A stretch of 60,160 bases of DNA from Candidatus Zhuqueibacterota bacterium (lineage in GTDB: Bacteria > BS750m-G25). This document shows, one piece after another, positions 1 through 12,771 of the stretch; within the stretch, counting starts at the first letter, position 1; the number at the start of each line of letters is the position of its first letter. A program made the position numbers and the translations under genes. Location of the stretch: NCBI GenBank assembly GCA_016783505.1, contig JADHWK010000011.1:1-60160 (forward strand). The letters are read 5' to 3'. The notes below the pieces were generated by a model. It searched no databases. It saw only the letters and a program-made list of their open reading frames with translations, and was not told where the DNA came from.

Positions 1-315
1 GTTCCCCAGGCCATCCTGGCAGCCAAGGCCGGGGCCACCTTTGCCAGTCCCTTCGTGGGTCGGTTGGATGACATCAGCCACGTAGGGATGGACCTGGTGC
101 GGGAGATCGTGACCGTCTACGAAAACTATGGATTTGCTACCGAGGTGATCGTGGCCAGTATCCGCAACCCCCTGCATGTGGTGGACGCCGCATTAGCTGG
201 GGCCCATATCGCTACTATCCCCTTTAAGGTGATCGAGATAATCATCAAACACCCCCTTACCGATAGGGGGATCCAAAAATTTCTGGCGGATTGGGAAAAG
301 ATGAGGCCAATCTAA
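1..315 (+). CDS. tal: Transaldolase / fructose-6-phosphate aldolase family, 5'-truncated by the window edge
   Basis: The frame is open from base 1: [22 protein letters not shown]...[10 protein letters not shown]...[15 protein letters not shown], typical of the TalC/FSA C-terminal half. Confidence 0.93.
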
Positions 316-384
316 CACGGCAAAGCAGCAATTAGTACACACTTAATGAGCTTTGAAGATAAAAATTTTAATTGCTAAAGTAAT

Positions 385-523
385 AATGGAACGATGGAAG
401 AATGGAATTATGGATAAAGGGATAAGTGGATAAATGGATTTATGGAGTGATGGATTGATGAGGCTGCTGAATATTAGCGGGTAAAAAAATTTTCCAATAA
501 TCCAACTATCCAATAATCCATTT
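385..523. repeat. Degenerate 8-bp tandem repeat array followed by its inverted complement
   Basis: About nine units AATGGAAC/GATGGAAG/AATGGAAT/TATGGATA... at 385-460, then TTCCAATA ATCCAACT ATCCAATA ATCCATTT at 492-523. Confidence 0.8.
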
Positions 524-611
524 ATATGAGTGTTAGAATTGCAGAGACATTATACTTTACTGACACATATGACCTATATATAATTGTCAATACTTAAGTG
601 GGAGAGTCCCC

Positions 612-842
612 ATGAATGAAGATTTTGAATGGATCCGAACCCATATAGAAGAGTTGGTGGAGAAGTATGCGGGAAACTATGTGGCGGTGGTCGAAAAAAG
701 AGTAGTGGTTGTCAATAAATCAGGCAAGCTCGCTGAGGATAAAGCATTGACTCAGCTTCCAGGCAAAGAACCCTTGGTTTTTCCGGTTCCCAAAAAAGAG
801 GATTTCAATTGTCTGCTATCGTTTTTCCCTATTCGACCCTGA
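612..842 (+). CDS. DUF5678-like small protein
   Basis: 76 aa, EDFEWIRTHIEELVEKYAGNYVAVVEKRVV pattern; SD GGAGAG; overlaps the downstream protease gene. Confidence 0.75.
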   Translation: MNEDFEWIRTHIEELVEKYAGNYVAVVEKRVVVVNKSGKLAEDKALTQLPGKEPLVFPVPKKEDFNCLLSFFPIRP

Positions 843-1219
843 AGGATCGTAAAGTTCCTATCGTTCCGATAAATATTTTTGGGAATGGAAGATGGCATTA
901 TTGCTTGGCCTTTGTAGATTCTGGTGCCACTTTCAGCATTTTTAAAAAAGACGAAGCCCAGGGATTGGGCTTGGAATTTGACTCCGGCACTGAGATCTGG
1001 GTTGTAGTAGGTGGCGGAAGTTACATCCCTGTTTACATTCACCGGCTGAAAGTGATGATCGGCGAGGAAGAAATCGAAGCGGACATCGGTTTTTCTGATA
1101 GGTTGGGGGTCGGGTTTAATCTTCTGGGGAGAAAAAATATTTTTGATTGTTTCAGAGTGTGTTTCAACGACAAAGAAGGGATTGTCAGCTTCGAGGCAAA
1201 TAATAGGCAGAACAGTTGA
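809..1219 (+). CDS. Retropepsin-like (clan AA) aspartyl protease
   Basis: AFVDSGATFS catalytic motif and C-terminal NLLGR motif. Confidence 0.85.
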   Translation: MSAIVFPYSTLKDRKVPIVPINIFGNGRWHYCLAFVDSGATFSIFKKDEAQGLGLEFDSGTEIWVVVGGGSYIPVYIHRLKVMIGEEEIEADIGFSDRLGVGFNLLGRKNIFDCFRVCFNDKEGIVSFEANNRQNS

Positions 1220-1619
1220 AAAGGTGAGTGTTCAAAATTACGGGGATGTATTGAAGGCTGCTGATGGTCTCATCACCGAGGATCAGATCCGCACCGTCGA
1301 GGCGGATGCGGTTGTGGATACGGGAGCTACTTATCTCTGTTTACCTCCCAAGGTCATTAAGAAGCTGGGACTGTTATTTCATACTGATGTAACGGTTAAG
1401 ACTGCCAATGGGGATGCTTATCAAAGGCTGTTTCTCGGTGCAAAGGCCGAAATCCAAGGACGCAGTGCCCTCGTTACCGTAATGGAAAACGATTTGAAAA
1501 CACCACCCCTGATTGGGTATATTATTTTAGAAGAGTTAGATTTGGTGGTTGACCCCCGAACGAAGACCATTATTCCTAATCCCACCCACGAAGGGAAGTG
1601 GACTGCGGATTTGTATTAA
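1203..1619 (+). CDS. Clan AA aspartic protease (AF_0612-like); start uncertain, possibly ATA at 1203
   Basis: AVVDTGATYL and PLIGYIILEELDLVVDP motifs; GAGG at 1193-1196 precedes in-frame ATA-GGC-AGA (GRTVEKV). The ORF track extends it to 1143. Confidence 0.8.
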   Translation: MGRTVEKVSVQNYGDVLKAADGLITEDQIRTVEADAVVDTGATYLCLPPKVIKKLGLLFHTDVTVKTANGDAYQRLFLGAKAEIQGRSALVTVMENDLKTPPLIGYIILEELDLVVDPRTKTIIPNPTHEGKWTADLY

Positions 1620-1646
1620 TCATTAGACATAGTTGTTAGGAAAGAT

Positions 1647-2831
1647 ATGAAATCTTCTGCATTATTGAAGTATTTCATAATCGGCTTTGCCGTCGGTTTA
1701 GCGGGCATTCTCCTGTTTAAGGGATTGCCATATCGGGAAGGGGGGGAAAGTCCGGTAAGGCAGCCCCTGTTGGTGAAAAATATTGCTGCCCAGGAGATAC
1801 AGGACGAGATTACAGCTTCCCGTCAAAACGCCATCACCCGGGCGGTAAAGAAGGCGGGACCAGCCGTGGTGGGGATCAACGTCACCCAGGTGAGGGAATA
1901 CCGGGCCCGGAATCCCTTCTTCAATGATCCCTTTTTTCGGGACTTCTTTCCTCCCCTGATTTATCGTCAGCCCATCAAAAGTCTGGGCTCCGGGCTTCTG
2001 ATCTCCGATGACGGCTACATCCTGACCAATGAACACGTGGTCCACAATGCGGTGGAAATCATCGTCACCCTCACCGACGGGGAACAATATGATGCGGAGC
2101 CGGTGGGGGCGGATTTTAACTCCGACATCGCCCTGTTGAAAATAGAAGGTAATGATTTTCATTCTCTCAAATTTGGCAATTCGGACGATATTATCATCGG
2201 GGAGTGGGTGATCGCCATCGGTAATCCCTACGGATTGTTTTCTATCAATAATGAACCCACGGTAACCGTGGGGGTGGTGAGCGCCGTGAACCGGGATTTT
2301 GGCAAATTACAGAATCGGCGGGTGTATAAGGATATGATCCAGACCGACGCCTCCATCAATCCGGGTAATTCGGGAGGACCCCTGATCAATTCGCTGGGCG
2401 AGGTCATCGGGATGAACACCATGATCTATTCGGAGAGCGGGGGCTCCATCGGGCTGGGGTTTGCCATTCCCATCAATTACGTCAAAGAGATCGTGGATGA
2501 TCTGAGGGAACGGGGCGGGGTAAACCGGAATTACTGGACGGGTTTAAGCATTCAGGACGTGGACCGGCTGATCGCCTGGAGCCTGGGGCTTAAGTCCACC
2601 AAAGGGGTGATTGTCACCGACGTGGAAAAGGGCAGCCCGGCCGAAAAGGTGGGGGTTGAAGTAGCCGACGTGATCCTGGAAATGAATGGGATCGAGATCA
2701 ATAATGATCGGGATGTCCGTGAACTCCTCCAGAATAGCGACCTTAAGGTAGGGGATAAGCTGGAACTTAAAATCTTCCGTGATGGGAAAATCCTCAAGAA
2801 GAAAGTCAAATTGGAGGCGGTGGGGGGATAA
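1647..2831 (+). CDS. degP: HtrA/DegP-family serine protease with one PDZ domain
   Basis: N-terminal TM segment, LTNEHV, SDIALL and INPGNSGGPL triad motifs, C-terminal PDZ (GSPAEKVG). Confidence 0.93.
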   Translation: MKSSALLKYFIIGFAVGLAGILLFKGLPYREGGESPVRQPLLVKNIAAQEIQDEITASRQNAITRAVKKAGPAVVGINVTQVREYRARNPFFNDPFFRDFFPPLIYRQPIKSLGSGLLISDDGYILTNEHVVHNAVEIIVTLTDGEQYDAEPVGADFNSDIALLKIEGNDFHSLKFGNSDDIIIGEWVIAIGNPYGLFSINNEPTVTVGVVSAVNRDFGKLQNRRVYKDMIQTDASINPGNSGGPLINSLGEVIGMNTMIYSESGGSIGLGFAIPINYVKEIVDDLRERGGVNRNYWTGLSIQDVDRLIAWSLGLKSTKGVIVTDVEKGSPAEKVGVEVADVILEMNGIEINNDRDVRELLQNSDLKVGDKLELKIFRDGKILKKKVKLEAVGG

Positions 2832-2865
2832 TTAGAACATAAATTTTTGAACTGAGGGGGCAGTT

Positions 2866-3193
2866 ATGTCTCCTTTTAGCCAAAATTATACTGTTAAAAA
2901 GAAATCCAAAATTCTTGACCAGATACATTCCGCCATTCGAACCAGGCATTACAGCCTCCGTACTGAAGAAGCTTATGTTAACTGGATCAAAAGATTTATC
3001 CTTTTTCACAAGAAACGGCACCCTCTTGAAATGAGTGAGAAAGAAATAAATCAGTTTTTAACCTACCTTGCGGCATTCATTTGCGACACATCTGTTAGAA
3101 GCTGGATATGATATTCGAACTGTACAAGAATTATTAGGTCACAAAAATCTGGCAACAACGATGATTTATACGCATGTTCTGAATATAGGCTAG
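2866..3193 (+). pseudogene. intI: Integron integrase with a large internal deletion and frameshift
   Basis: N-terminal LDQIHSAIRTRHYSLRTEEAYVNWIKRFILFHKKRHP...FLTYLA is fused out of frame to C-terminal [39 protein letters not shown] (RHSF onward at 3071-3193). The central catalytic region is missing. Confidence 0.95.
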
Positions 3194-3312
3194 TTATTTA
3201 GATTTAACCGCTTGTTATTTAGAATCTATAACCACCAAAATACAAATGAGCTTATCCATCTCATCAAGATGGTTTTGCTGATTTCATTGGAATGGATATA
3301 CTTAGGTTGGGC
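3185..3312 (+). other. attI-like recombination site, copy 1
   Basis: Directly 3' of intI; ends GGATATACTTAG-GTTGGGC (GTT at 3306); 124-bp ungapped repeat of 5422-5545. Confidence 0.75.
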
Positions 3313-3419
3313 GGATGAAATGACATATATTGCGTACACCTAGTTAGACGAAAAGATTGGCTAAATGGAGGACGGATTGAGACGGAGTTTATAGACAATA
3401 GAAAAGGCGAAGTTAAAAG

Positions 3420-3575
3420 GTGACAGCTAATACAAGACAGACACTCACGATCGAAATGATGATAATGACGATGTTGTTGTTGATAATGATGATGGTGGTG
3501 GTGAACGGTGACGACGTCAACCATGACAATGCTGAGAACATAGGCAAGATGGCTAAAGGCGACAAATCGATTTGA
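3420..3575 (+). CDS. Possible 51-aa hydrophobic peptide in the cassette 1 leader
   Basis: GTG...TGA frame: MTANTRQTLTIEMMIMTMLLLIMMMVVVNGDDVNHDNAENIGKMAKGDKSI, built on an ATG/TTG/GTG triplet tract; weak RBS. Confidence 0.25.
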   Translation: MTANTRQTLTIEMMIMTMLLLIMMMVVVNGDDVNHDNAENIGKMAKGDKSI

Positions 3576-3600
3576 CACACTAACCAGTTTGGAGAGTCTC

Positions 3601-5109
3601 ATGGAACAAAGCAGTAATAAAAAGAATACACCACGACAATTGATGGAACTTGCAGTGCAAGAGGGCGAACACTCCATCCCTGAGCATCATGACAAAGAAG
3701 ACCCGTTTGTCGGAGCTATTGTAGCAACCAAGGACGGAAAGATTCTGGCGAAGGCTCATCGTGGAGAACTACGTGTTGGTGAACACTGCGAGTTCACGCT
3801 CCTTGAAAGAAAGCTTCGCGATCAGAACCTTTCCGGTTGTGATCTGTATGTAACCATGGAACCCTGTACTGATGAATCCAGAGGACCTGGAAAGCGGGGT
3901 TGTGCAACCCATATTGCCAGCGCTCGCATCGTGACCGTATATATTGGAATAGATGACCCCAATCCTACGATCGCTCGTGAGGGTATTCGATACCTTATCT
4001 CAAAAAATGTGGTGGTGCACCCGTTCGACGCCGACATGCAGGAGAAAATTAGAGAGAGGAATGCTGCTTTCATCAAGGAGAAAGAAGAAGAGGTAAAGAC
4101 TATTGCTTTGAAGGAGGCTGAGGAAGGAAAGAAGACTCTTCTCGAAAGGTCCAAAGCTGATGCATCATTTGCTGGTCTTTCTAATAACACCCTGCAAAAA
4201 TTCGTCGAGCTTTCTAAACTCCCTTATGCGTTCCCGTCGATAGATTTTAATAAGTGGGCAACTGAATATGGATTGCTGGAACAAACGGATGGAACAACTG
4301 AACCTCGGCCCACTGGGCTAGGGAGCATGCTCTTTGGCCAGCGACCTTCAATTTTTTACCCACAAGTCATTTTCAAGACCGAGATCCAATACGGTACGGG
4401 AGAGCCGGAAATACACGACTTTGAGGATCCGCTTGTGCTTCAATGGCCGCAGATTCGTGAGTATCTCTTAAGCAAGGCTTTCAAACTCCCAATAAATAGA
4501 TCAGGTGGGGAACGCATCGAAACTCCTGATTTTCCAATAGACGTAATTCGCGAAGCCGTGGTCAATGCAATTGTTCATCGCGATTACAACATCGAAGGTG
4601 CGACAAACTATCTCTACATTGATCCTGAGAAGATCATTATTCGGAGCCCGGGAGTTGTTGTTCCGCCAATTACACTTGAAGACCTAAGAGAATTCAAGGC
4701 ATCGTGGTACAGTCGCAATCCGAAAATCATGTATGTGTTCAATCAGATGAGGCTTGCTGAACAGCGGGGCAAAGGGATAAGCAGCATGAAGCAATTGCCC
4801 TCGCTTGGATTTCCTCTTCCCACATTTGAGATTCAGGGGGGTAGCCTAGTTGTTACTTTTGCGAGAACTCGAACTGCGGCGGGTAAAGCTGATATATCAG
4901 CACTGGAGTACAAGGAATTGTTGTTCATTCAGGCCTATGAACCGATTACGCGGGCACAATTCGCTAAAGAGTTCAACCTGCCTACCAGGACTGCCCAAAA
5001 CCATCTCGGCCGGCTTATTGACATGGGTGTCATTTCCCCGAAGGGAAAAGGCAAGGCAATAAAGTATTATCATAAAAGGATGAGCGTAATGGATAGCAAT
5101 GAACTCTGA
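3601..5109 (+). CDS. Zn-dependent deaminase (RibD/dCMP-deaminase-like) fused to a HATPase_c_4 (GHKL-like) domain and a C-terminal winged HTH; cassette 1
   Basis: PFVGAIV, GEHCEF (HxE) and VTMEPC...GC motifs; REAVVNAIVHRDY, RSPG, SRNP and EQRGKGI; ITRAQFAKEFNLPTRTAQNHLGRL HTH. SD GGAGAG precedes ATG 3601. Confidence 0.88.
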   Translation: MEQSSNKKNTPRQLMELAVQEGEHSIPEHHDKEDPFVGAIVATKDGKILAKAHRGELRVGEHCEFTLLERKLRDQNLSGCDLYVTMEPCTDESRGPGKRGCATHIASARIVTVYIGIDDPNPTIAREGIRYLISKNVVVHPFDADMQEKIRERNAAFIKEKEEEVKTIALKEAEEGKKTLLERSKADASFAGLSNNTLQKFVELSKLPYAFPSIDFNKWATEYGLLEQTDGTTEPRPTGLGSMLFGQRPSIFYPQVIFKTEIQYGTGEPEIHDFEDPLVLQWPQIREYLLSKAFKLPINRSGGERIETPDFPIDVIREAVVNAIVHRDYNIEGATNYLYIDPEKIIIRSPGVVVPPITLEDLREFKASWYSRNPKIMYVFNQMRLAEQRGKGISSMKQLPSLGFPLPTFEIQGGSLVVTFARTRTAAGKADISALEYKELLFIQAYEPITRAQFAKEFNLPTRTAQNHLGRLIDMGVISPKGKGKAIKYYHKRMSVMDSNEL

Positions 5110-5313
5110 ATCGCACCACAAATCGCACCAACATGGCGCGATTCATGTTTTTTACCTGTTTGGTTAGGATGATCGCGCTATTATGCGAGCCAACATGGCG
5201 CGATTAAGATTACGAAGAAATCTTGCTGGTTCTATTCGTGCCAATCTTCTCCGCCTAACTAAAACGGTAATATGTGCAGAATAGTCAAATATATAGTCTA
5301 AATATTGCCGCCC

Positions 5314-5365
5314 AACCAGGCATTACAGCCTCCGGACTGAAGAAGCTTATGTTAACTGGATCAAA
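5314..5365 (+). pseudogene. intI: Second 52-bp intI fragment fused to the R'' box of the cassette 1 attC
   Basis: 51/52 identical to 2940-2991; shares the AAC of GCCCAAC (5310-5316). Confidence 0.9.
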
Positions 5366-5421
5366 GTAATATCAAGGGGATGAGTTTATCCGTCTGATTC
5401 GGATGGATAAACCAGAGCAAA

Positions 5422-5549
5422 ATAGGCTGGTTATTCATATTTAACTGCTTGTTATTTAAAGGTTATAAACATCAAAATTCAAATGAGTTTATCCATCTCA
5501 TCAAGATGGTTTTGCTGATTTCATTGGGATGGATATACTTAGGTTATGC
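5422..5549 (+). other. attI-like recombination site, copy 2
   Basis: 13 mismatches in 124 bp versus copy 1 (manual count). Identity stops right after GTT (5543-5545), where cassette 2 begins (GTTATGC). Confidence 0.75.
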
Positions 5550-5573
5550 TGAAATCTAATGGGGGGTAAAATT

Positions 5574-6902
5574 ATGAAATCATCATATACAAAATGTCTT
5601 AATTGTAACACAGTGAATTTATCAATAAGCATTTTATGCAGTGTATGTTCAAAACTACTAATTAGGCTTCGTTGGTGGTTTTTTATATTACTATTTATAT
5701 CATTTGCTATCTCTAGTTATCTTAGTGGCCAATTAGGATTAATTTGGTTCGAATATGTATATTTGGAATTATTAGTCATAGGTATAATATTTATCTTGTT
5801 AAGAAATCATACAAAACTTTGGCCTTCTTTATTCTTTTTCTTTTTTTTATCTTTTATCTTAATTCTATTACACAATTATTATGATCAATTTTCTTTTCTA
5901 CCAAAGGTTACTACTTCATTTATTAAATTACTAATTGCTATTTATTTACCTATTGCCTATTGGTTTTCTTTTGTTAGAGCCTGTAAAGAAACTGAGCAGA
6001 GCATAATAAAGAGCTTTTCCGTATTTTCATTAGTAGTTTTTATTCTTTTAAATTTATTAAAATTAATCAATAAATATTTCTTATTAGTCGATGAAAATAT
6101 AATATCTGTAATTACCAAGAGTTTATATTTAAGGGAGATATTTTTAATAATATCGATTCTATTCGCTTCATACATTTCTTTTATCAACGCATTGAAAAGA
6201 AGAATTTCTCAACCACAAGACTTATTTTCAAAAATTACACATGTTCCTGATTTTACTTTTAATCCAGAAGTAAATTGGATTAGTTCATTTTTACCAATCA
6301 TTAAAGTAATATATATAGTCACATCAAAAATTTATATAATAATAATTACATTCATAAAAGAGGTCATCAATATTTTTAAAAGAATAATGGAATATTTAGT
6401 AAAATTTCTAAATAACTTTATTTTAGAATTCATACAACTTACCAATAATTTAATAAAAGTATTTCTTAGAAGTGTGAGATTTTATATTACATTAAATATG
6501 ATACCACTTTTCATGTTATTTCTAATATCAATTGTTAATGTTCGCTTATCTCAAAATATCTTTCTTTTTATTAACTCATCAAACAACATAAGTCACTTAT
6601 TTAATATAATGTTAAAGATATTTTATATTGTATTTCTATCTTTTTTCATGTTATGGTCTATTACTGAATATAATTTTAAAAAGTTTAGGGATAGTTATAT
6701 TTTTTCAGCAACGTTTATAATTTTCACTATTTTTATTGGTTCATTGTTATCATCATATGCTCTATATGTATTCGCAAAATTTCTAGACAATTCTGTTTTT
6801 AAAAGCTTCAATATCTTTTTAGTTACTGGTACTATTTTATTAGGAATATTTTTAGTTTCTATGTTTACTTACAGTAAAATTAAGAAGGAAAAGACGATTT
6901 AA
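5574..6902 (+). CDS. Polytopic membrane protein with an N-terminal Zn ribbon; cassette 2
   Basis: CLNC-x10-CSVC followed by about 10 hydrophobic segments; extremely AT-rich; alternative start at 5559. Confidence 0.8.
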   Translation: MKSSYTKCLNCNTVNLSISILCSVCSKLLIRLRWWFFILLFISFAISSYLSGQLGLIWFEYVYLELLVIGIIFILLRNHTKLWPSLFFFFFLSFILILLHNYYDQFSFLPKVTTSFIKLLIAIYLPIAYWFSFVRACKETEQSIIKSFSVFSLVVFILLNLLKLINKYFLLVDENIISVITKSLYLREIFLIISILFASYISFINALKRRISQPQDLFSKITHVPDFTFNPEVNWISSFLPIIKVIYIVTSKIYIIIITFIKEVINIFKRIMEYLVKFLNNFILEFIQLTNNLIKVFLRSVRFYITLNMIPLFMLFLISIVNVRLSQNIFLFINSSNNISHLFNIMLKIFYIVFLSFFMLWSITEYNFKKFRDSYIFSATFIIFTIFIGSLLSSYALYVFAKFLDNSVFKSFNIFLVTGTILLGIFLVSMFTYSKIKKEKTI

Positions 6903-6919
6903 TAATTCTATAATATTAA

Positions 6920-7106
6920 GCATAACCCAAAAATGCACCGGATGAAAACGCTACCCTCAATTTTCACATTTCAGTTCGGCCAACTCATGTTTCGGGCGTT
7001 GATATTGGTTTTTCTTGTTGGGGTCATTCTTTTCGTTCAGTTGTATATTCGTCCGGTGTTCTGGTAGTTTATCGGTTGGTTTCACCTGTTATGCGAATCG
7101 TTAGGC
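6920..7106 (+). other. attC site (long, 187 bp)
   Basis: R'' GCATAAC at 6920; ATGCACCGGATGAAA pairs imperfectly with TTTCACCTGTTAT; R' GTTAGGC at 7100. Confidence 0.75.
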
Positions 7107-7126
7107 TGAAAAATCGGTAAAACATT

Positions 7127-7843
7127 ATGAATGAAAAAGCACCATCCACACTCACGCTTGATGAAATTGAAGAGATTGAAAAGCTTACGCTTCGTTGGAT
7201 TTTTCAGGCCGTTTTGGACTTTGGGATGGAAGCGCCTGAAATCTTTCTCAAGTCCCCTGATCGTGTAAAAGATATTGCCGAAGATATAACGAGAGAACTG
7301 TTGGATAGATTGCCGGGATATAATGTTCCACAACGTATCTATGGCACTGTGGATTACAAAAAAGCAAGATATATCATTTTGCCGGACCAAACCGTTAGGC
7401 AAACCTTGTTTATCGAGTCTAAAGCGGAAAAAGAACATAGATCAGCAACCATCCAAATGTCGCAACTCTCCATTTGGGTTCGGCAACGACGTTCAGGTAG
7501 TGAGATTAACGAAAAGGGGTTTTTACCGGAAATCTCTGAATACGGGGGGAAGCATTATTTAACAACCACCTCCCTAGTGCATTTTATGTACAAAGACGAA
7601 GGAGGAATGCACCATCTCAAAGAAGTGACCATAGCAGCCGTCCCTAATGGGCTATTACAAGATCGCTATAACCCTACTTGTGAGGACACGATCTGGTTGG
7701 CTGGAAGAAATGCGCCAACACTTGGTGAGGATTTTCGGGTGAGACTGAGTTTCTCAAAACTGAAGCAAAAGGCTTCATGGCGAATTCAAAAAATTATCTA
7801 CGATGAATCTACAGGGGAGTGCACAGGGCAATGGCAGTCGTAA
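7127..7843 (+). CDS. SfiI-family type II restriction endonuclease; cassette 3
   Basis: EKLTLR...DIAEDITRE...GTVDYKKAR...FIESKAEK...QMSQ...GRNAPTLGEDFRVRLSF recalled as the SfiI-family signature; overlaps a methyltransferase gene. Confidence 0.85.
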   Translation: MNEKAPSTLTLDEIEEIEKLTLRWIFQAVLDFGMEAPEIFLKSPDRVKDIAEDITRELLDRLPGYNVPQRIYGTVDYKKARYIILPDQTVRQTLFIESKAEKEHRSATIQMSQLSIWVRQRRSGSEINEKGFLPEISEYGGKHYLTTTSLVHFMYKDEGGMHHLKEVTIAAVPNGLLQDRYNPTCEDTIWLAGRNAPTLGEDFRVRLSFSKLKQKASWRIQKIIYDESTGECTGQWQS

Positions 7844-8850
7844 AGATTTCAGAGTATCTTAAATCCAATCACATATATCACGGGGATGCCAGGGTGCTTC
7901 TGAAAAAAATAGAGCCTGAAACCGTTGCATTGAGCTTATGGTCACCGCCCTATTTTGTCGGAAAGGATTATGAAAAGGAGTTAACCTTTGACGACTGGAA
8001 GCATCTTCTTCATGAGACCATTGCCCTGCATTACGAAATCCTAAAACCAGGGGGGTTCTTAGCGATAAATATTGCGGATATTCTATGTTTTAAGGATGAA
8101 TCTATGCCAAAAATCATGGCTGAAAATGTCTCAAGAAGAAAAATTGATCTTACAAGAGCACAAATATTAAAAGTAAAAGATAAGAATCCCGACTGGAATC
8201 GCTATAAGCTCGCAGAATACTTTGGTTGTAGTGAACAAACTATAGATAGAAGGCTACACGGAAACAATATACGAGGCGGCAAATATCAAGCCCAGACGAG
8301 AGTTTTCATTGTGGGTGGGCTTATAGAGAGAATGGCTTTAGATGCTGGTTTATATGCTTATGATAGACGTATTTGGGTAAAAGACGCGGCATGGGAAAGC
8401 TCCAGGTGGCATACGATTTCCTATCGGGCCGTTGATGAATTCGAATATTTGTATGTTTTCTGGAAACCTGGCGTAACAAAAGTGGATCGCTCCAGATTAA
8501 CCAAGCAAGAGTGGATCAACTGGGGGTCGAGAGGCATTTGGGAAATCCCTTCCGTGCGAAGCAATGCGGATCATGAATCAAAATTTCCCATTGAATTACC
8601 CAGAAGGGCTATAAAGCTATTTACAGATTCAGAGGATATTGTGCTGGATTGCTTTATTGGAAGTGGAACAACGGCTTTAGCGGCAATAAGTGAAGGGCGA
8701 AGGTATATTGGAATCGATAAAGAAAAGAGGTCGGTAGAAATATCTAGGGCAGCGGTGGCCTCGTATCATGAATATGCCAAAGAGCCTCAACAAATGGAAT
8801 TAATGGTGCAAGAAATAGAAGCCAAATATGAAGCAAAAACCGAAACCTAA
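7831..8850 (+). CDS. N4-cytosine (beta-class) DNA methyltransferase with an internal HTH; cassette 3
   Basis: Motif IV WSPPY precedes motif I LDCFIGSGTT; insert NRYKLAEYFGCSEQTIDRRL; the stop TAA lies inside the attC R'' box. Confidence 0.92.
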   Translation: MAVVKISEYLKSNHIYHGDARVLLKKIEPETVALSLWSPPYFVGKDYEKELTFDDWKHLLHETIALHYEILKPGGFLAINIADILCFKDESMPKIMAENVSRRKIDLTRAQILKVKDKNPDWNRYKLAEYFGCSEQTIDRRLHGNNIRGGKYQAQTRVFIVGGLIERMALDAGLYAYDRRIWVKDAAWESSRWHTISYRAVDEFEYLYVFWKPGVTKVDRSRLTKQEWINWGSRGIWEIPSVRSNADHESKFPIELPRRAIKLFTDSEDIVLDCFIGSGTTALAAISEGRRYIGIDKEKRSVEISRAAVASYHEYAKEPQQMELMVQEIEAKYEAKTET

Positions 8851-8916
8851 CAACAGCTTGCAGTTGACCGCTCCTCTGCTACGCTCCACAGTGGCAACTG
8901 AAGCTGGGCGTTATGC
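8845..8916 (+). other. attC site (72 bp)
   Basis: ACCTAAC-AACAGCTTGCAGTTGAC...GGCAACTGAAGCTGGGC-GTTATGC, a canonical hairpin with extrahelical bases. Confidence 0.95.
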
Positions 8917-8942
8917 TGTATATTAAAATTTAGAGGTTAATC

Positions 8943-10241
8943 ATGGCATCTAAAATTATTTTAACGGATGAAGAAATAATCACATGCCCTCAATGTTCAA
9001 ATAAATTTTCATTACATCAAGGTATTACGAGACAGACACTTGATAAATATGAAGAAGAATTTAATAATGAAATTAAGGAACAGAGTAAAAGATCAGAAGA
9101 AAGAATACGTGCTGAGTTAGAAAAACAATTGAAATCTGTCTATTCTGTTGAAGTTCAAGAACTCAAGGATAAATTATCAGATAAAGAAGCAATATTAAAT
9201 CGAGCAAGAATCAAGTTTAAAAATTTGCAAACGGAAGAACGCAAAAAACTCGAAGAGGAATTTGAATTAGAGAAAAAAAGCTACTTCGAAGAAATATCAA
9301 GAAAAGACTCAGAATTGAAGAAATTTAGGGAGCAAGAGATAGAATTGAGAAATGAAAAACGTAAACTTGAAGATGACAAAAAGAATATGGAGTTAGAAGT
9401 TCAAAGAAAAATTGATACAGAAAAAGATAAAATGTATGAACAAATATCAAAAGATATATCTGATAAATTTCGACTAAAAGAATCAGAATATCAAAAGAAG
9501 TTGAGCGATGCCCAAAGAGCTAATGAAGAACTTGAAAGAAAATTAAAGCAAGGATCACAACAACTTCAAGGAGAAGTGTTAGAGCTCGAGATAGAAAAAT
9601 TATTATATACAGAATTCCCCCTCGATAATATCAATCCTGTTAAAAAAGGGGAACGTGGTGCTGATATTTTACAAGAAGTATGCACGCCGACTGGTCAAAT
9701 TTGTGGTACTATAATATGGGAAGCCAAAAATCAAAAAAATTGGTCTGATAAATGGATTCAAAAATTAAAGGATGATCAAATAGAAGTCAATGCCGAAATT
9801 GCTGTTATTGTAAGTTCTTCCTTGCCTAAAGATATGCAAGAATTATTTGAACGTAGAGATGATATTTGGATTTCAAGCGATAAAGTAGTTAAACCAGTAG
9901 CTCATTCCTTACGATTAATGTTACTTGAAATGAATAAAATAAAGATGGTAAGTGCAGGTAAAAGCGAAAAAATGGAATTGTTGTATGATTATTTATGTAG
10001 CCATCAATTCACACAAAAAGTAAAAGGAGTCATAGAGACTTTCGTAAATATGAAAACAGAATTAGATCAAGAAAAAAATGCTTTTCAAAGAATTTGGAAA
10101 AAACGTGAAAGTCAAATTGATAGAGTAGTTAATAATATGAGTAGTATGATAGGTGAATTGCAAGGTATTGCACAGCATTCAATTCCACAATTAGAGGATA
10201 TACAACCTCTGTTATTGCCAGTTTCTGATGATGAGTTATAG
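8943..10241 (+). CDS. DUF2130-family coiled-coil protein with a putative C-terminal nuclease-like domain; cassette 4
   Basis: ITCPQC, long coiled coil, GSQQLQGEVLELEIE, GADILQ, GTIIWEAKN and WIQKLKDDQ motifs. Confidence 0.88.
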   Translation: MASKIILTDEEIITCPQCSNKFSLHQGITRQTLDKYEEEFNNEIKEQSKRSEERIRAELEKQLKSVYSVEVQELKDKLSDKEAILNRARIKFKNLQTEERKKLEEEFELEKKSYFEEISRKDSELKKFREQEIELRNEKRKLEDDKKNMELEVQRKIDTEKDKMYEQISKDISDKFRLKESEYQKKLSDAQRANEELERKLKQGSQQLQGEVLELEIEKLLYTEFPLDNINPVKKGERGADILQEVCTPTGQICGTIIWEAKNQKNWSDKWIQKLKDDQIEVNAEIAVIVSSSLPKDMQELFERRDDIWISSDKVVKPVAHSLRLMLLEMNKIKMVSAGKSEKMELLYDYLCSHQFTQKVKGVIETFVNMKTELDQEKNAFQRIWKKRESQIDRVVNNMSSMIGELQGIAQHSIPQLEDIQPLLLPVSDDEL

Positions 10242-10248
10242 ATAATCA

Positions 10249-10378
10249 GCATAACAAAAATTTCAACCTGACTGGAACAGCGATTGGCGAATTTGATTTT
10301 TCGGTACTCGCAATACGTTTTCAAAAATATTGAAATACAATGCGTCGTATGTTCCAGCAGGTTATTTTCACGTTATAC
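10249..10378 (+). other. attC site (130 bp)
   Basis: GCATAAC...TTCAACCTGACTGGAACA pairs with TGTTCCAGCAGGTTA...; R' GTTATAC at 10372. Confidence 0.92.
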
Positions 10379-10397
10379 GCGTAAATAGAGGGCTAAA

Positions 10398-11198
10398 ATG
10401 AATCCTGAATTTTGGCGCAATTTTTTCCAATGGATGATGTACATTGCCACTGCATTTATTCTAATTGGTACCATTGGTGTAAATATTTTTACTAAGAAAA
10501 TTGAAAAACTTGAAAAAGATAAAACAGCATTACTTGAAAGGCAGCGTGATGCTGAAATAGAAAAAAATATAAAAAATACAGAAAAACTATTAACACTGAA
10601 TACTTTCCTTGGGGGAATTGATAATCCCGTTGAAAAGCTGTTCTTAATAATTGACTTTTATCGGTCCTGCACAGTTGAAGAACTACAAGGATTTGTATGT
10701 TATTTAAACTTCCATAAAATAAATAGGACTTATGAATTTAAAGTTAGTCACGCAATGAAACATCCTGAAAATGAAATGAGATTATTCTTGAAACAAAAAT
10801 CTGTAAATAGTGGAGAATGGAACTCTAATCCATCTATTATGCAAGCTTTCCACAATAGAGCTGAAACTTCATTTTTAGCATTCGATCTTTGGTACTTTTT
10901 AAAAGAGAAACCGAAAGGATTAAAAATAAGAGATTTAAATTCAGCATTTTTCGAAATTGCTGTTAGCAAGAAACACTCCAATTTAATAAAAGAATTTCAA
11001 ATCAATGTAAATGACTGGACAATAATACATAGAAATTGTATTGATAATAATTGGAAAGATTATAAGTCAGATTGGTTGCCTTCCGATAAAATTGAACTCG
11101 GAGCATATTACTATCGTGATTTTCAAAATAGAGAAATAATAACGCAAAGAATTGATTTTTTCCAAGAAGGTGCCTCTCGTTATTATGTTATGTTTTAA
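10398..11198 (+). CDS. Hypothetical protein with an N-terminal membrane anchor; cassette 5
   Basis: 266-aa ORF filling the cassette; TM segment MMYIATAFILIGTIGVNIF, then a short coiled coil; no recognised domain. Confidence 0.8.
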   Translation: MNPEFWRNFFQWMMYIATAFILIGTIGVNIFTKKIEKLEKDKTALLERQRDAEIEKNIKNTEKLLTLNTFLGGIDNPVEKLFLIIDFYRSCTVEELQGFVCYLNFHKINRTYEFKVSHAMKHPENEMRLFLKQKSVNSGEWNSNPSIMQAFHNRAETSFLAFDLWYFLKEKPKGLKIRDLNSAFFEIAVSKKHSNLIKEFQINVNDWTIIHRNCIDNNWKDYKSDWLPSDKIELGAYYYRDFQNREIITQRIDFFQEGASRYYVMF

Positions 11199-11206
11199 TA
11201 ATTCGC

Positions 11207-11393
11207 CCATAACACAGCAATGCAGGGGATGCGACCGCCCCCTTTCATTCGTTATTTTCGGTTTGGCCTACGGTCGGTTACAGCGTTCATTTATATTGCA
11301 TGAATTGGGTTTCGTTTCATTGTTTTTGTAAGTTAAGGTTTTTTGTTCAGGTCGGTTCGTGGTTGGTCGCACCCCTGATCGCCAACGTTAATC
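11207..11393 (+). other. attC site (long, 187 bp), last in the array
   Basis: CCATAAC...ATGCAGGGGATGCGACC pairs with GGTCGCACCCCTGAT...; R' GTTAATC at 11387. Confidence 0.9.
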
Positions 11394-11454
11394 AGCTCAT
11401 TTCTTTTGCCTAATTCAATTGGTTCCATCAATAGTTTAAACTTATAGGAAAAAA

Positions 11455-12771
11455 ATGTTAGAACGCTACACCCTTCCCGAAATGGGGGAGGTTTGGTCGG
11501 AAGAACATAAGTTTGAAACCTGGCTCCGGGTGGAAATTGCCGTCTGTGAAGCCCAGGCCGAAATGGGGTTAATCCCGAAAGAAGCGGTTTCCGTCATCAG
11601 GGAAAAAGCTGCATTTGACGTTGGGCGAATTCAGGAGATCGAAGAAAAGGTCAATCACGACGTCATCGCCTTCCTGACCAACGTGGCCGAAAACGTGGGT
11701 GCCGAGGCCCGGTATGTTCATCTGGGGATGACCTCTTCGGATGTCCTGGATACAGCTTCGGCCCTGAGGTTACAGGAAGCCGGTGACATTATTTCAAGAA
11801 AAATAGAGTCTCTGAAAAGCCTGCTGGCCGGAAAAGCCCTTCAATATCGTGACAGGGTCATGATCGGCCGTACCCACGGGATGCATTCAGAGCCCATTAC
11901 CCTGGGTCTCAAATTCGCCGTCTATTTCTATGAAATGGGTCGTAACATCCAGCGTTTCCAAAGGGCACTGGACGGGATTTCTTTCGGCAAGATCTCCGGG
12001 GCGGTGGGCACTTTTGCTTTCTTAGACCCCAGCATAGAGGAGAAGACCTGTTCCCTTTTGGGTCTGAAGCCGGCTCCCATATCCACCCAGGTCCTGCAAC
12101 GGGACCGTCATGCTGAATTTTTAACAACGCTGGCCATTATTGCCGGTTCGCTTGAAAAAATCGCCACCGAGATCAGGAATTTGCAGCGGACGGAAATTCT
12201 GGAGGTGGAAGAGCCCTTCGGCAAAGGTCAGAAAGGCTCCTCAGCCATGCCCCATAAACGGAACCCTATCACCTGCGAACGGATCGTCGGCTTAGCCCGG
12301 ATGGTCCGGGCCAACGCTATGGTTGCCTTAGAGAATATCGCCCTGTGGCATGAGCGGGATCTCACCCATTCTTCGGCCGAGAGGATCATCTTCCCCGATA
12401 CCACTATTCTTATTGATTACATGCTGGAAAAAACGATCGCTGTTTTAGAAAACCTGACGGTTTATCCGGAGAACATGGAGGCCAATCTTAACCTACTGAA
12501 TGGTCTCATTTTCTCCCAGGCGGTGCTGTTAGCCCTGGTAAAAAAAGGGATGGACCGGGAAGGGGCATACCGAATAGTGCAGCGGAACGCCATGGCGGCT
12601 TCTCGAGCCCGGGAAAATTTTAAAGAGAAAATATCGGGGGATAAAACCATAAAGAAATTATTAACTCTTGAAGAGATAGAAGATTGTTTTGACCTGAAAA
12701 CACACTTGAGAAACATAGACCGGATTTATGAGAGAGCAGGGTTAGGTAGCGTAAATCAGCGGGGTGGATAG
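11455..12771 (+). CDS. purB: Adenylosuccinate lyase
   Basis: HLGMTSSD, GRTHG and GSSAMPHKRNP signatures. Confidence 0.98.
   Translation: MLERYTLPEMGEVWSEEHKFETWLRVEIAVCEAQAEMGLIPKEAVSVIREKAAFDVGRIQEIEEKVNHDVIAFLTNVAENVGAEARYVHLGMTSSDVLDTASALRLQEAGDIISRKIESLKSLLAGKALQYRDRVMIGRTHGMHSEPITLGLKFAVYFYEMGRNIQRFQRALDGISFGKISGAVGTFAFLDPSIEEKTCSLLGLKPAPISTQVLQRDRHAEFLTTLAIIAGSLEKIATEIRNLQRTEILEVEEPFGKGQKGSSAMPHKRNPITCERIVGLARMVRANAMVALENIALWHERDLTHSSAERIIFPDTTILIDYMLEKTIAVLENLTVYPENMEANLNLLNGLIFSQAVLLALVKKGMDREGAYRIVQRNAMAASRARENFKEKISGDKTIKKLLTLEEIEDCFDLKTHLRNIDRIYERAGLGSVNQRGG

Follow-up and report, generated by a model that had tools for sequence, protein, structure and literature searches.

The window analyzed here, a 60,160-nucleotide (nt) stretch of contig JADHWK010000011.1 of Candidatus Zhuqueibacterota bacterium (assembly GCA_016783505.1), harbors a gene whose 502-amino-acid (aa) product is a fusion of a RibD-clade zinc deaminase, a GHKL ATPase and a C-terminal winged helix-turn-helix (wHTH) domain, and which is directly followed by an array of short repeated boxes. 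With some reservation, we regard it as probable that this module is a deaminase-armed sibling of the Schlafen-GHKL-HTH defense proteins, composed of one protein and a private array of DNA sites and acting in an abortive-type defense. The observations on which this proposal is based are the domain architecture, the conserved catalytic centers, the mobility of the gene, its defense-type neighborhoods, its frequent embedding in type I restriction-modification (R-M) operons, and the co-variation of the array with the recognition helix of the wHTH. The gene and its domains are as follows.

3601 to 5109, plus strand: deaminase-GHKL-wHTH gene, an intact open reading frame (ORF) with an ATG start, 502 aa.
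3622 to 4080, plus strand: RibD-clade Zn-deaminase domain (residues 8 to 160), with H62, E64, C89 and C101; R54, R94 and K98; and D119-P-N121.
4273 to 4875, plus strand: GHKL ATPase domain (residues 225 to 425, Pfam core 339 to 420), with N-box residues E318/N322, SPG (349 to 351), RN (372 to 373) and G392.
4888 to 5076, plus strand: C-terminal wHTH (residues 430 to 492, recognition helix approximately 462 to 474), assigned from AlphaFold2 (AF2) secondary structure, PDB wHTH matches and a weak Pfam HTH_24 match.

An alternative TTG start at position 3589 would add four residues; homologs align instead from the ATG. The fusion, together with its HCE and EPC...C motifs, had been proposed in the first-pass annotation of this DNA, and Pfam, PDB profiles, the AF2 model and Foldseek all bear it out. 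The zinc deaminase signature of the CDA superfamily (HxE plus two zinc cysteines) is complete, comprising H62-C63-E64 and E87-P88-C89...C101, and EAVVNAIVHRDY, with N322, and VVNA are likewise present. Pfam returned dCMP_cyt_deam_1 at residues 11 to 116 (E value of 2.4e-11, 43.9 bits, cutoff 25) and HATPase_c_4 (PF13749) at residues 339 to 420 (4.9e-13, 49.3 bits, cutoff 26), with no match to the Schlafen AlbA_2 domain (PF04326) at E values up to 0.1. Because HTH_24 scored below its cutoff (residues 442 to 478, 15 bits), assignment of the wHTH rests on the AF2 model (pLDDT 92.4, pTM 0.72), in which residues 434 to 491 form three helices and a two-strand wing, and on profile matches of residues 430 to 490 to small wHTH regulators in the PDB (2d1h, 2.6e-4). 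When a profile of 60 family members was searched against the PDB, RibD domains ranked first for the deaminase part (RibG 2b3z, 2.2e-23), followed by TadA (5.4e-15), and residues 228 to 415 matched the Schlafen-type protein 3lmm_A (7.7e-20); Foldseek with the AF2 model likewise retrieved 3lmm and RibG 2b3z_D, the latter with a root mean square deviation (rmsd) of 2.3 A over 153 columns. The architecture is not a product of chance, as more than 100 full-length homologs share it.

The closeness of the deaminase to RibD, whose deaminase domains are the best matches in both sequence and fold, raises the possibility of a housekeeping enzyme of the riboflavin pathway that has been fused by chance to other domains. 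This reading is nearly excluded. The RibD model TIGR00326 of NCBIfam matched over positions 1 to 148 of 343 only, at 52.1 bits against a cutoff of 156.35, in agreement with the previously noted absence of the reductase domain, and a canonical bifunctional ribD (345.6 bits, cutoff 156) is encoded on another contig of the same assembly, which amounts to 2.5 Mb at 60% completeness. As had also been noted, the gene has no riboflavin company: rib genes were not found within positions 1 to 12000, no Rfam family matched that interval at E values up to 1 (and hence no flavin mononucleotide [FMN] riboswitch), and no rib family is present in the top-25 family tally of 117 neighboring proteins at related loci. 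The gene is furthermore a mobile cassette (see below), and a full-length family member was present in only 1 of the 60 other genomes searched, these being unrelated bacteria that share with the source genome the domain only.

The family itself is large, extends over several phyla, and is without a name in the literature found. A word-indexed search returned 650 matches, and in all of the best 120, whose domain content was checked with our own domain hidden Markov models (HMMs), the deaminase and GHKL domains occur together. An exhaustive search of representatives at 50% identity gave 168 matches at E values up to 1e-30; among the best 150, which were classified, at least 110 combine deaminase and GHKL domains (81 of these with a detectable wHTH), the others comprising 23 with GHKL and wHTH only, 12 with the deaminase only and 5 with GHKL only, many of the partial matches being fragments. 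A few members carry an additional N-terminal extension of 140 to 190 aa without a Pfam match, and source annotations read "deaminase," "ATP-binding protein" or, wrongly, "RecG helicase." No full fusion was present among 65 matches on viral contigs. Proteins with 69 to 76% identity are encoded in metagenome-assembled genomes (MAGs) labeled Ignavibacteriales, WOR-3, Sumerlaeota and Bacteroidota and, given this spread over four phylum labels and the sporadic occurrence of the family, the gene is therefore mobile and sporadic.

Across 190 full-length members, both catalytic centers are under purifying selection. The zinc and acid residues H62, E64, C89 and C101 are each retained in 189 members, as is E318 of the N-box, while N322 is invariant (190 of 190). 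The basic residues of the deaminase are conserved to a similar degree (R54 in 189, R94 in 188 and K98 in 181), D119 is present in 187, and position 121 is N or D in 177. On the basis of motif conservation and of likeness to RzAgo, a Schlafen-type Argonaute discussed below, the GHKL domain is predicted to bind and hydrolyze ATP and to undergo ATP-dependent dimerization or tetramerization.

These residues also bear on the substrate of the deaminase. In RibG, Asp101 and Asn103 contact the ribose 2'/3'-OH groups and Lys79 is salt-bridged to the 5'-phosphate (PMC8256712), and in a PDB-profile alignment these contacts correspond to D119-P-N/D121 of the family and to a basic C..R..K..C insert between the zinc cysteines. 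Because the RibG ribose and phosphate contact residues are conserved, we infer that the substrate is a phosphorylated ribosyl compound with free 2'/3'-OH groups, mononucleotide-like rather than a polynucleotide. Iyer et al. (2011, PMC3239186) describe a long insert between the two cysteines, with a conserved His, as characteristic of the RibD clade; the insert is present in the family, and its His is not conserved. The same evidence bears on the proposal that the protein is an editing deaminase, tethered to DNA by its wHTH and acting on bases of phage or host DNA or RNA. MafB19-deam (29.5 bits, cutoff 27) and Inv-AAD (29.2 bits, cutoff 26.5) both exceed their Pfam thresholds, TadA structures are the second-best PDB matches, and the protein comes with a DNA-binding domain and with boxes that form hairpins. 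RibD is, however, clearly the closest clade (2.2e-23 versus 5.4e-15 for TadA), the long insert is RibD-typical, and the conserved ribose and phosphate contacts suit a mononucleotide-like substrate, such that nucleic acid editing is considered improbable.

The remainder of the protein belongs to a chassis which, as had been claimed, usually bears a Schlafen N terminus: this is borne out by the matches to 3lmm and to PADLOC models of prokaryotic Argonaute (pAgo) and Aga systems, by a paralog in the same genome, and by two preprints. Matches in PADLOC-DB v2.0.0 are partial only, consisting of Aga_SIR2-PNTD (residues 161 to 358, 2.6e-10), pAgo (residues 273 to 428) and wHTH pieces; contact with pAgo/Aga and CARF models is limited to the GHKL and wHTH regions, and the dCTPase model matched with an E value of 0.03 over 40 residues. 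Among proteins without the deaminase, the nearest relatives of the C-terminal half have Rce1-like, TatD-like or Schlafen N termini, and the source genome encodes a 506-aa paralog composed of Schlafen and HATPase_c_4 (PF13749) domains; as these proteins carry other N termini, effectors appear to have been swapped on the chassis. According to the available text of one preprint, 58.6% of 103,533 prokaryotic Schlafen proteins contain PF13749, a combination termed the "Schlatpase" supradomain, and most of these have a C-terminal HTH; in RzAgo, ATP binding via the E/N pair of PF13749 leads to tetramerization and activates the Schlafen tRNase; and pAgo and type I R-M loci exchange a Schlatpase module (bioRxiv 10.64898/2026.05.29.728809). 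In the available part of a second, the commonest partners of prokaryotic Schlafen (pSlfn) domains are HisKinase (34%) and HisKinase-HTH (19.2%), and two other pSlfn architectures protect Escherichia coli against phage (bioRxiv 10.1101/2025.07.24.666596). Proteins composed of Schlafen, "minimal histidine kinase" and wHTH parts have furthermore been described as backup effectors of BREX loci (PMC12839542).

Besides the window, 25 loci with full-length homologs (seven species genomes and 18 metagenome contigs; hereafter denoted by L numbers) were available for neighborhood comparison, the neighbors at ten short-contig loci being seen only through the pooled top-25 family tally. An R-M, AbiTii, HmaB, PDC-S19, SLATT or type III restriction endonuclease (REase) gene lies nearby in 12 of these loci, which, together with the missing rib families, upholds the earlier claim of a defense rather than a riboflavin context. 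No protein partner is common to all 25, and R-M genes are the only recurrent ones. An hsdS gene is located upstream and co-oriented in six loci, abutting or overlapping the start of the homolog in L004, L010, L015, L018 and L023 and lying one gene away in L012, while hsdR follows in L012 and L018, and hsdM is present in L004 and L023. Other neighbors include a PDC-S19 PADLOC candidate (L012), HmaB-type methylases on both sides (L024), large N6/N4 methylases (L009, L013 and L031), a type III REase (L031), SLATT_4 (L011), RadC (L010 and L015), and AbiTii with an integrase fragment (L002). This integrase fragment (L002, positions 5714 to 6091) is 75% identical over 73 nt to the C-terminal intI remnant of the window and lies upstream of AbiTii and the homolog; this copy of the gene may likewise reside in a decayed integron.

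The second conserved component of the module is the box array, which starts directly 3' of the stop codon. The first-pass annotation had described a single-gene system, and there is indeed one protein gene, but a conserved cis partner had been missed. The array in the window comprises two units.

5110 to 5142, plus strand: triple-box unit 1, with boxes at 5110 to 5118 (direct), 5122 to 5130 (direct) and 5134 to 5142 (inverted).
5172 to 5204, plus strand: triple-box unit 2, 62 nt after unit 1, with a degenerate middle box.

Each unit consists of a 9-nt box, the same box 12 nt further on, and an inverted copy, a composite pattern which is unique in the assembly. The design recurs 3' of the gene at other loci, with a box sequence that differs by locus. 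As a relaxed box scan was noisy (100 of 721 control windows matched), we relied on a strict scan (7-mers with at most one mismatch in all), covering both strands of 298 kb from 26 loci including the window. It identified 62 units, of which 25, from 21 of the 26 loci, lie no more than 300 nt past the gene; 40 of 47 units have a spacing of 12 nt between boxes, and the period between units is 60 to 63 nt in 15 of 21 intervals (125 nt once). At the nucleotide level, the window and L001 are homologous only over the gene and approximately 150 nt beyond it, and the array therefore travels with the gene. No mention of such arrays was found in the literature. The repeats at 5110 to 5205 had also been considered as the attC site of the cassette, a candidate which was rejected, since triple-box units of this kind are also found behind the gene where it lies in type I R-M operons or in other settings.

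Several irregular arrays were seen among these loci. At loci of close homologs, two box types, one GCGCC-like and the other GGGCA-like, occur in tandem in L004 (positions 11507 to 11740) and downstream of the gene in L002 and L003, in the opposite order in L004, and the arrays look as if they had recombined. The unit at positions 2158 to 2250 of L016 is inverted relative to the gene, and at 9461 to 9570 of L031 the unit period is, by eye, approximately 71 nt, one helical turn above 62 nt, where the automated scan paired the boxes differently.

The sequence of the box and that of the predicted recognition helix co-vary, and they do so against the core tree (built from residues 8 to 425). TAxNH-type helices pair with boxes ending in ..CC(A) and AQRxL-type helices with boxes ending in ..AC(A); the sister loci L010 and L015 differ in both helix and box, L015 and L019 share both yet stand apart on the core tree, and L017 (R, ATCCGGCCA) and L157 (K, ATCAGGCCA) are one helix residue and one box position apart. 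From these sequence comparisons we infer that the wHTH binds the boxes. Arrays are also a property of the wider chassis: in a test for at least three phased 8-mers within 120 nt of the stop codon, they follow 29 of 101 chassis genes without a deaminase, versus 16 of 946 other ORFs from the same loci, often beginning at the stop codon and often consisting of direct repeats only. Direct-only arrays at a phase of 10 to 12 nt fit better with sites on one face of double-stranded DNA than with an RNA hairpin. The Schlafen-HATPase_c_4 paralog of the source genome (locus L155, contig C9) is itself followed, from approximately 20 nt past its stop codon, by five direct 12-nt repeats; their box is unrelated to that of the window, and they form the paralog's own array.

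A C-terminal wHTH with cognate repeats is a classic feature of regulators, and COG2865-type proteins are often annotated as such (PF22168 name). The protein might accordingly be a locus-specific one-component regulator that controls the downstream gene (for example hsdR, in the manner of an R-M controller protein) from the boxes, with the deaminase sensing a ligand or contributing a minor metabolic activity. The boxes do lie between the gene and its next neighbor, which in L012, L018 and L024 encodes HsdR or a methylase. Against such a role, the next gene is convergent in L006 (metK), the cassette in the window ends approximately 115 nt past the boxes, and the extent of homology between the window and L001 implies that the boxes move with the gene and not with a target gene. 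The near-invariant catalytic centers would moreover be needless in a pure sensor, and relatives on the same chassis carry nucleases. We consider regulation of a neighboring gene to be a fairly unlikely primary function.

The tandem repeats also recall ToxIN, in which tandem RNA antitoxin repeats stand beside the toxin gene. The module may on this view be a toxin-like, selfish addiction or stabilization module of cassettes and R-M operons, devoid of a primary anti-phage role and possibly with type III toxin-antitoxin (TA)-like logic if the repeats act as RNA. The gene is mobile and sporadic and is found beside selfish elements (R-M systems, IS110 and RadC), and each unit of the window folds when single-stranded, through pairing of boxes 1 and 3 (z scores of -2.7 and -2.1). 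The repeats, however, lie after the gene and not before it, and the direct-only repeats of relatives, at their 10- to 12-nt phase, cannot form hairpins, which points to double-stranded DNA sites. An addiction role thus appears improbable, as does the editing role discussed above.

The mobility of the module is most apparent from its setting, for which an integron cassette had been claimed. That claim stands with respect to intI remnants, an attI-like crossover and a 2.0-kb unit which occurs in other flanks elsewhere; it requires correction in that intI is gutted, the array of cassettes is broken by a second platform remnant, and no convincing attC hairpin was found for the first cassette. The relevant features are the following.

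2866 to 3111, plus strand: N-terminal part of the intI remnant (81-aa frame; Pfam Phage_int_SAM_4, 1.3e-18; TIGR02249 positions 1 to 55 of 315).
3089 to 3193, plus strand: C-terminal 34 codons and stop codon of the intI remnant (Phage_integrase positions 139 to 168 of 172; TIGR02249 positions 271 to 304 of 315).
3182 to 3315, plus strand: attI-like segment, copy A, with a terminator-like hairpin (3256 to 3272) and the crossover core GTTGGGC (3306 to 3312).
3306 to approximately 5320, plus strand: mobile cassette with the gene, the box array and an attC-like 3' end, delimited by contigs of other metagenomes.
5262 to 5320, plus strand: attC-like 3' end, unconfirmed as attC, with GCCTAAC (5262 to 5268), a 9-bp stem (5274 to 5282 and 5302 to 5310) and GCCCAAC (5310 to 5316).
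5314 to 5552, plus strand: second, more deleted platform remnant, composed of 52 nt of intI (5314 to 5365) and attI-like copy B (5419 to 5552).
5544 to 11392, plus strand: further cassettes, each with a terminal imperfect palindrome bounded by ...AAC and GTT...

The intI gene reads in the direction of the cassettes, and its fragments end 113 nt ahead of the crossover at 3306; model positions of approximately 56 to 270 are deleted, and the integrase is on this basis taken to be inactive. Copies A and B of the attI-like segment form a 134-nt direct repeat of 87% identity, the identity ending right after GTT. As no further copy is present in the 2.5-Mb assembly, membership of this segment in a BIME-like repeat family was considered and rejected. 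Contigs from four other metagenome runs (X2, X4, X7 and X11, of which X4 and X7 represent two studies) were compared with positions 2400 to 7400 of the window. A 3462-nt contig of X4 matches at 3306 to 5321 only (47 differences), contigs of X7 match at 3306 to 4849 and 4846 to 5314 and are unlike the window beyond, and contigs of X2 and X11 have loose ends after 5320/5321, while X4 contigs also track copy B (5482 to 5546) and diverge after GTT (5545/5546). The interval from 3306 to approximately 5320 is therefore a discrete 2.0-kb unit which begins at G|TT of GTTGGGC and behaves as a cassette, given that the same unit occurs in different flanks and that the attI-like site is joined elsewhere to other DNA.

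Its 3' end is less clear. GCCTAAC and GCCCAAC are heptamers of the RYYYAAC type and the 9-bp stem is L-like; GCCCAAC at 5310 to 5316 is the inverse of the first 7 nt of the cassette, and the fold of this end is no better than that of shuffled sequences (z scores of -0.6 and +0.9), the R' half being replaced in the window. The intI piece at 5314 to 5365 is 98% identical to 2940 to 2991, copy B has the crossover GTTATGC (5543 to 5549), and the junction between the first cassette and the second platform remnant displays the microhomology AACCAGG. The ...AAC/GTT... palindromes of four downstream units are more clearly attC-like than the end of the first cassette, and five of the eight matches to GTTATGC/GCATAAC in the window fall within 5543 to 10255. 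A scan for promoters and terminators (2800 to 5600) performed no better than on shuffled sequence, its sole find being the hairpin in the duplicated attI-like segment.

Among the downstream cassettes, that at 7127 to 8850 encodes a complete type II R-M pair in overlapping frames, consisting of an SfiI-family REase (Pfam, 7.1e-88) and an N6/N4 methyltransferase (PADLOC MTase_II, 1.7e-143). The others encode a 447-aa, AT-rich multi-pass membrane ORF without a family match (5559 to 6902), a DUF2130 protein whose N-terminal half is long and coiled (8943 to 10241) and a 266-aa ORF without a match (10398 to 11198); these three have a GC content of 23 to 34% and no PADLOC match.

Upstream of the deaminase gene, a GAT/GTG-rich, triplet-repeat-like stretch (3440 to 3580) contains a possible but uncertain Met-rich ORF of 40 codons (3457 to 3579, plus strand). 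This stretch varies in length, by 3 nt in X7 and by 36 nt in X2, and a similar Met-rich frame precedes the homolog of L001; a leader peptide and plain low complexity are both conceivable. Further upstream in the window, positions 389 to 525, in the gap between the end of a transaldolase-like gene and small ORFs, hold GGAT-rich repeats with an 8-nt period (six overlapping 27-nt copies) followed by a 27-nt inverted repeat (430 to 456 and 499 to 525), and positions 809 to 1619, beside an HtrA-type protease gene, hold two adjacent, overlapping ORFs with weak to moderate matches to retropepsin-like aspartyl proteases (PF13975 and PF13650).

Taken as a deaminase-armed sibling of the Schlafen-GHKL-HTH proteins, the module may be envisaged to operate as follows. 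The RibD-clade zinc deaminase would stand in for the usual Schlafen RNase on the chassis, the wHTH would bind its own boxes after the stop codon, and the GHKL domain, by analogy with one Schlafen-pAgo, would serve as an ATP-dependent oligomerization switch. A phage-linked trigger is proposed to switch on the deaminase, which would then convert a phosphorylated ribosyl compound, most likely of the nucleotide pool. The outcome would be a defense of the abortive-infection type, often as a backup within type I R-M operons in the manner of PrrC.

A number of points weigh against this model. Thirteen of the 25 loci, ten of them on short contigs, have no identified defense neighbor; the homolog of L006 sits between metH and metK, and those of L001 and L003 have PD40/TPR and HIT/HEAT genes next to them. 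The case for a role in defense draws on neighbors and on relatives with a different effector, and in the available text of the pSlfn preprint the Schlafen-HisKinase-HTH class is not among the two protective proteins (bioRxiv 10.1101/2025.07.24.666596). ATP-driven oligomerization is known for one distant relative only, namely RzAgo (bioRxiv 10.64898/2026.05.29.728809). The co-variation of helix and box involves 22 loci and a handful of independent contrasts, and the array could act as RNA rather than DNA, given the pairing of box 1 with box 3 as a single strand. Finally, the protein is not a recognized system: no system model of PADLOC-DB v2.0.0 matches it over its full length and no paper was found, which also answers the first-pass concern that it might map to an already named system.

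A more elaborate version of the sibling model, in which the array is a DNA-templated safety catch on Schlafen-type defense, is regarded as unlikely, its guanine-pool example included. Under this scheme, the protein would load in cis on its helically phased private sites and stay locked there in an inactive nucleoprotein oligomer, until an act of the phage stripped it off, the candidates being a DNA-mimic anti-restriction protein, breakdown of host DNA, or loss of the type I R-M complex. Freed, ATP-bound GHKL domains would tetramerize and thereby activate the RibD-like deaminase against a nucleotide pool not yet known as a target of defense; conversion of guanine to xanthine nucleotides may serve as an example, given the 2-amino-4-oxo-pyrimidine substrate of RibD. 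Tens of thousands of Schlafen-GHKL-HTH proteins would be subject to this catch as well.

The presence of a new effector on a chassis tied to anti-phage defense by recent preprints would make the chassis a swappable platform, and the exchange of effector offers a clean test of whether the GHKL switch works independently of the effector it carries. An array that co-varies with the wHTH provides a handle on how single-protein systems stay silent or sense infection. Should the substrate be a nucleotide pool, the list of nucleotide-conversion defenses would grow longer, and the family might yield a new, regulated nucleotide deaminase activity.

With respect to known systems, the fold of the N-terminal domain is that of RibD/RibG (PDB 2b3z and 4g3m), with which it shares HxE, PC...C with the long insert, the DPNP ribose-contact motif and the basic phosphate-contact loop. 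In contrast to RibD/RibG, the protein lacks the reductase domain and scores under the RibD cutoff, retains Arg94 and Lys98 instead of the insert His of Iyer et al., has a family-specific RGELRxG motif ahead of HxE, and belongs to a family situated in mobile or defense contexts, the real ribD being elsewhere in the genome.

PrrC and RloC are anticodon nuclease effectors which are embedded in type I R-M operons and act as a backup behind restriction. Family members resemble them in position, in that they lie, in the same orientation, between hsdS and hsdR and in many cases overlap the stop codon of hsdS (L004, L010, L015, L018 and L023), and this placement suggests a backup line behind restriction. 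They differ in having no sequence relation and in that the family effector is a deaminase; the copy in the window is, moreover, without a type I R-M neighbor, such that a link to HsdMS is not obligatory.

Nucleotide-converting deaminases are established in defense, as exemplified by RdrB of RADAR, and a dCTP deaminase defense is reportedly the subject of a preprint by Tal et al. Cad1 is an ATP deaminase of defense (cited in PMC13462974). The idea of pool deamination by an effector within a larger regulated protein is common to all of these and to the model proposed here; the deaminases themselves belong to another clade or fold, and their partners are kinase-like, CARF or AAA domains, as opposed to GHKL and wHTH.

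The closest comparison is with the Schlafen-GHKL-HTH proteins ("Schlatpase," Kuzmenko et al. 2026; pSlfn HisKinase-HTH, Perez Taboada et al. 2025; 3lmm/DIP2311). These have in common with the window protein PF13749 with an E/N N-box, a C-terminal wHTH, a length of approximately 500 aa, an association with defense islands and R-M systems, and, at the frequency given above, phased repeats right after the stop codon, and a Schlafen version is present in the same genome. The window protein differs in its effector, a RibD-clade Zn-deaminase with no Schlafen/AlbA_2 RNase, and in its array, a regular pair of direct-direct-inverted units with a 62-nt period. As the defining Schlafen domain is missing, it is not a member of the Schlatpase/pSlfn class, though it is built on the same chassis. 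No description of a deaminase-GHKL fusion was found in the literature, and catalogs of Schlafen proteins would not be expected to list one. What is new in this module is thus the RibD-clade effector and a newly characterized cis element, while the chassis and the logic of the defense are already known.

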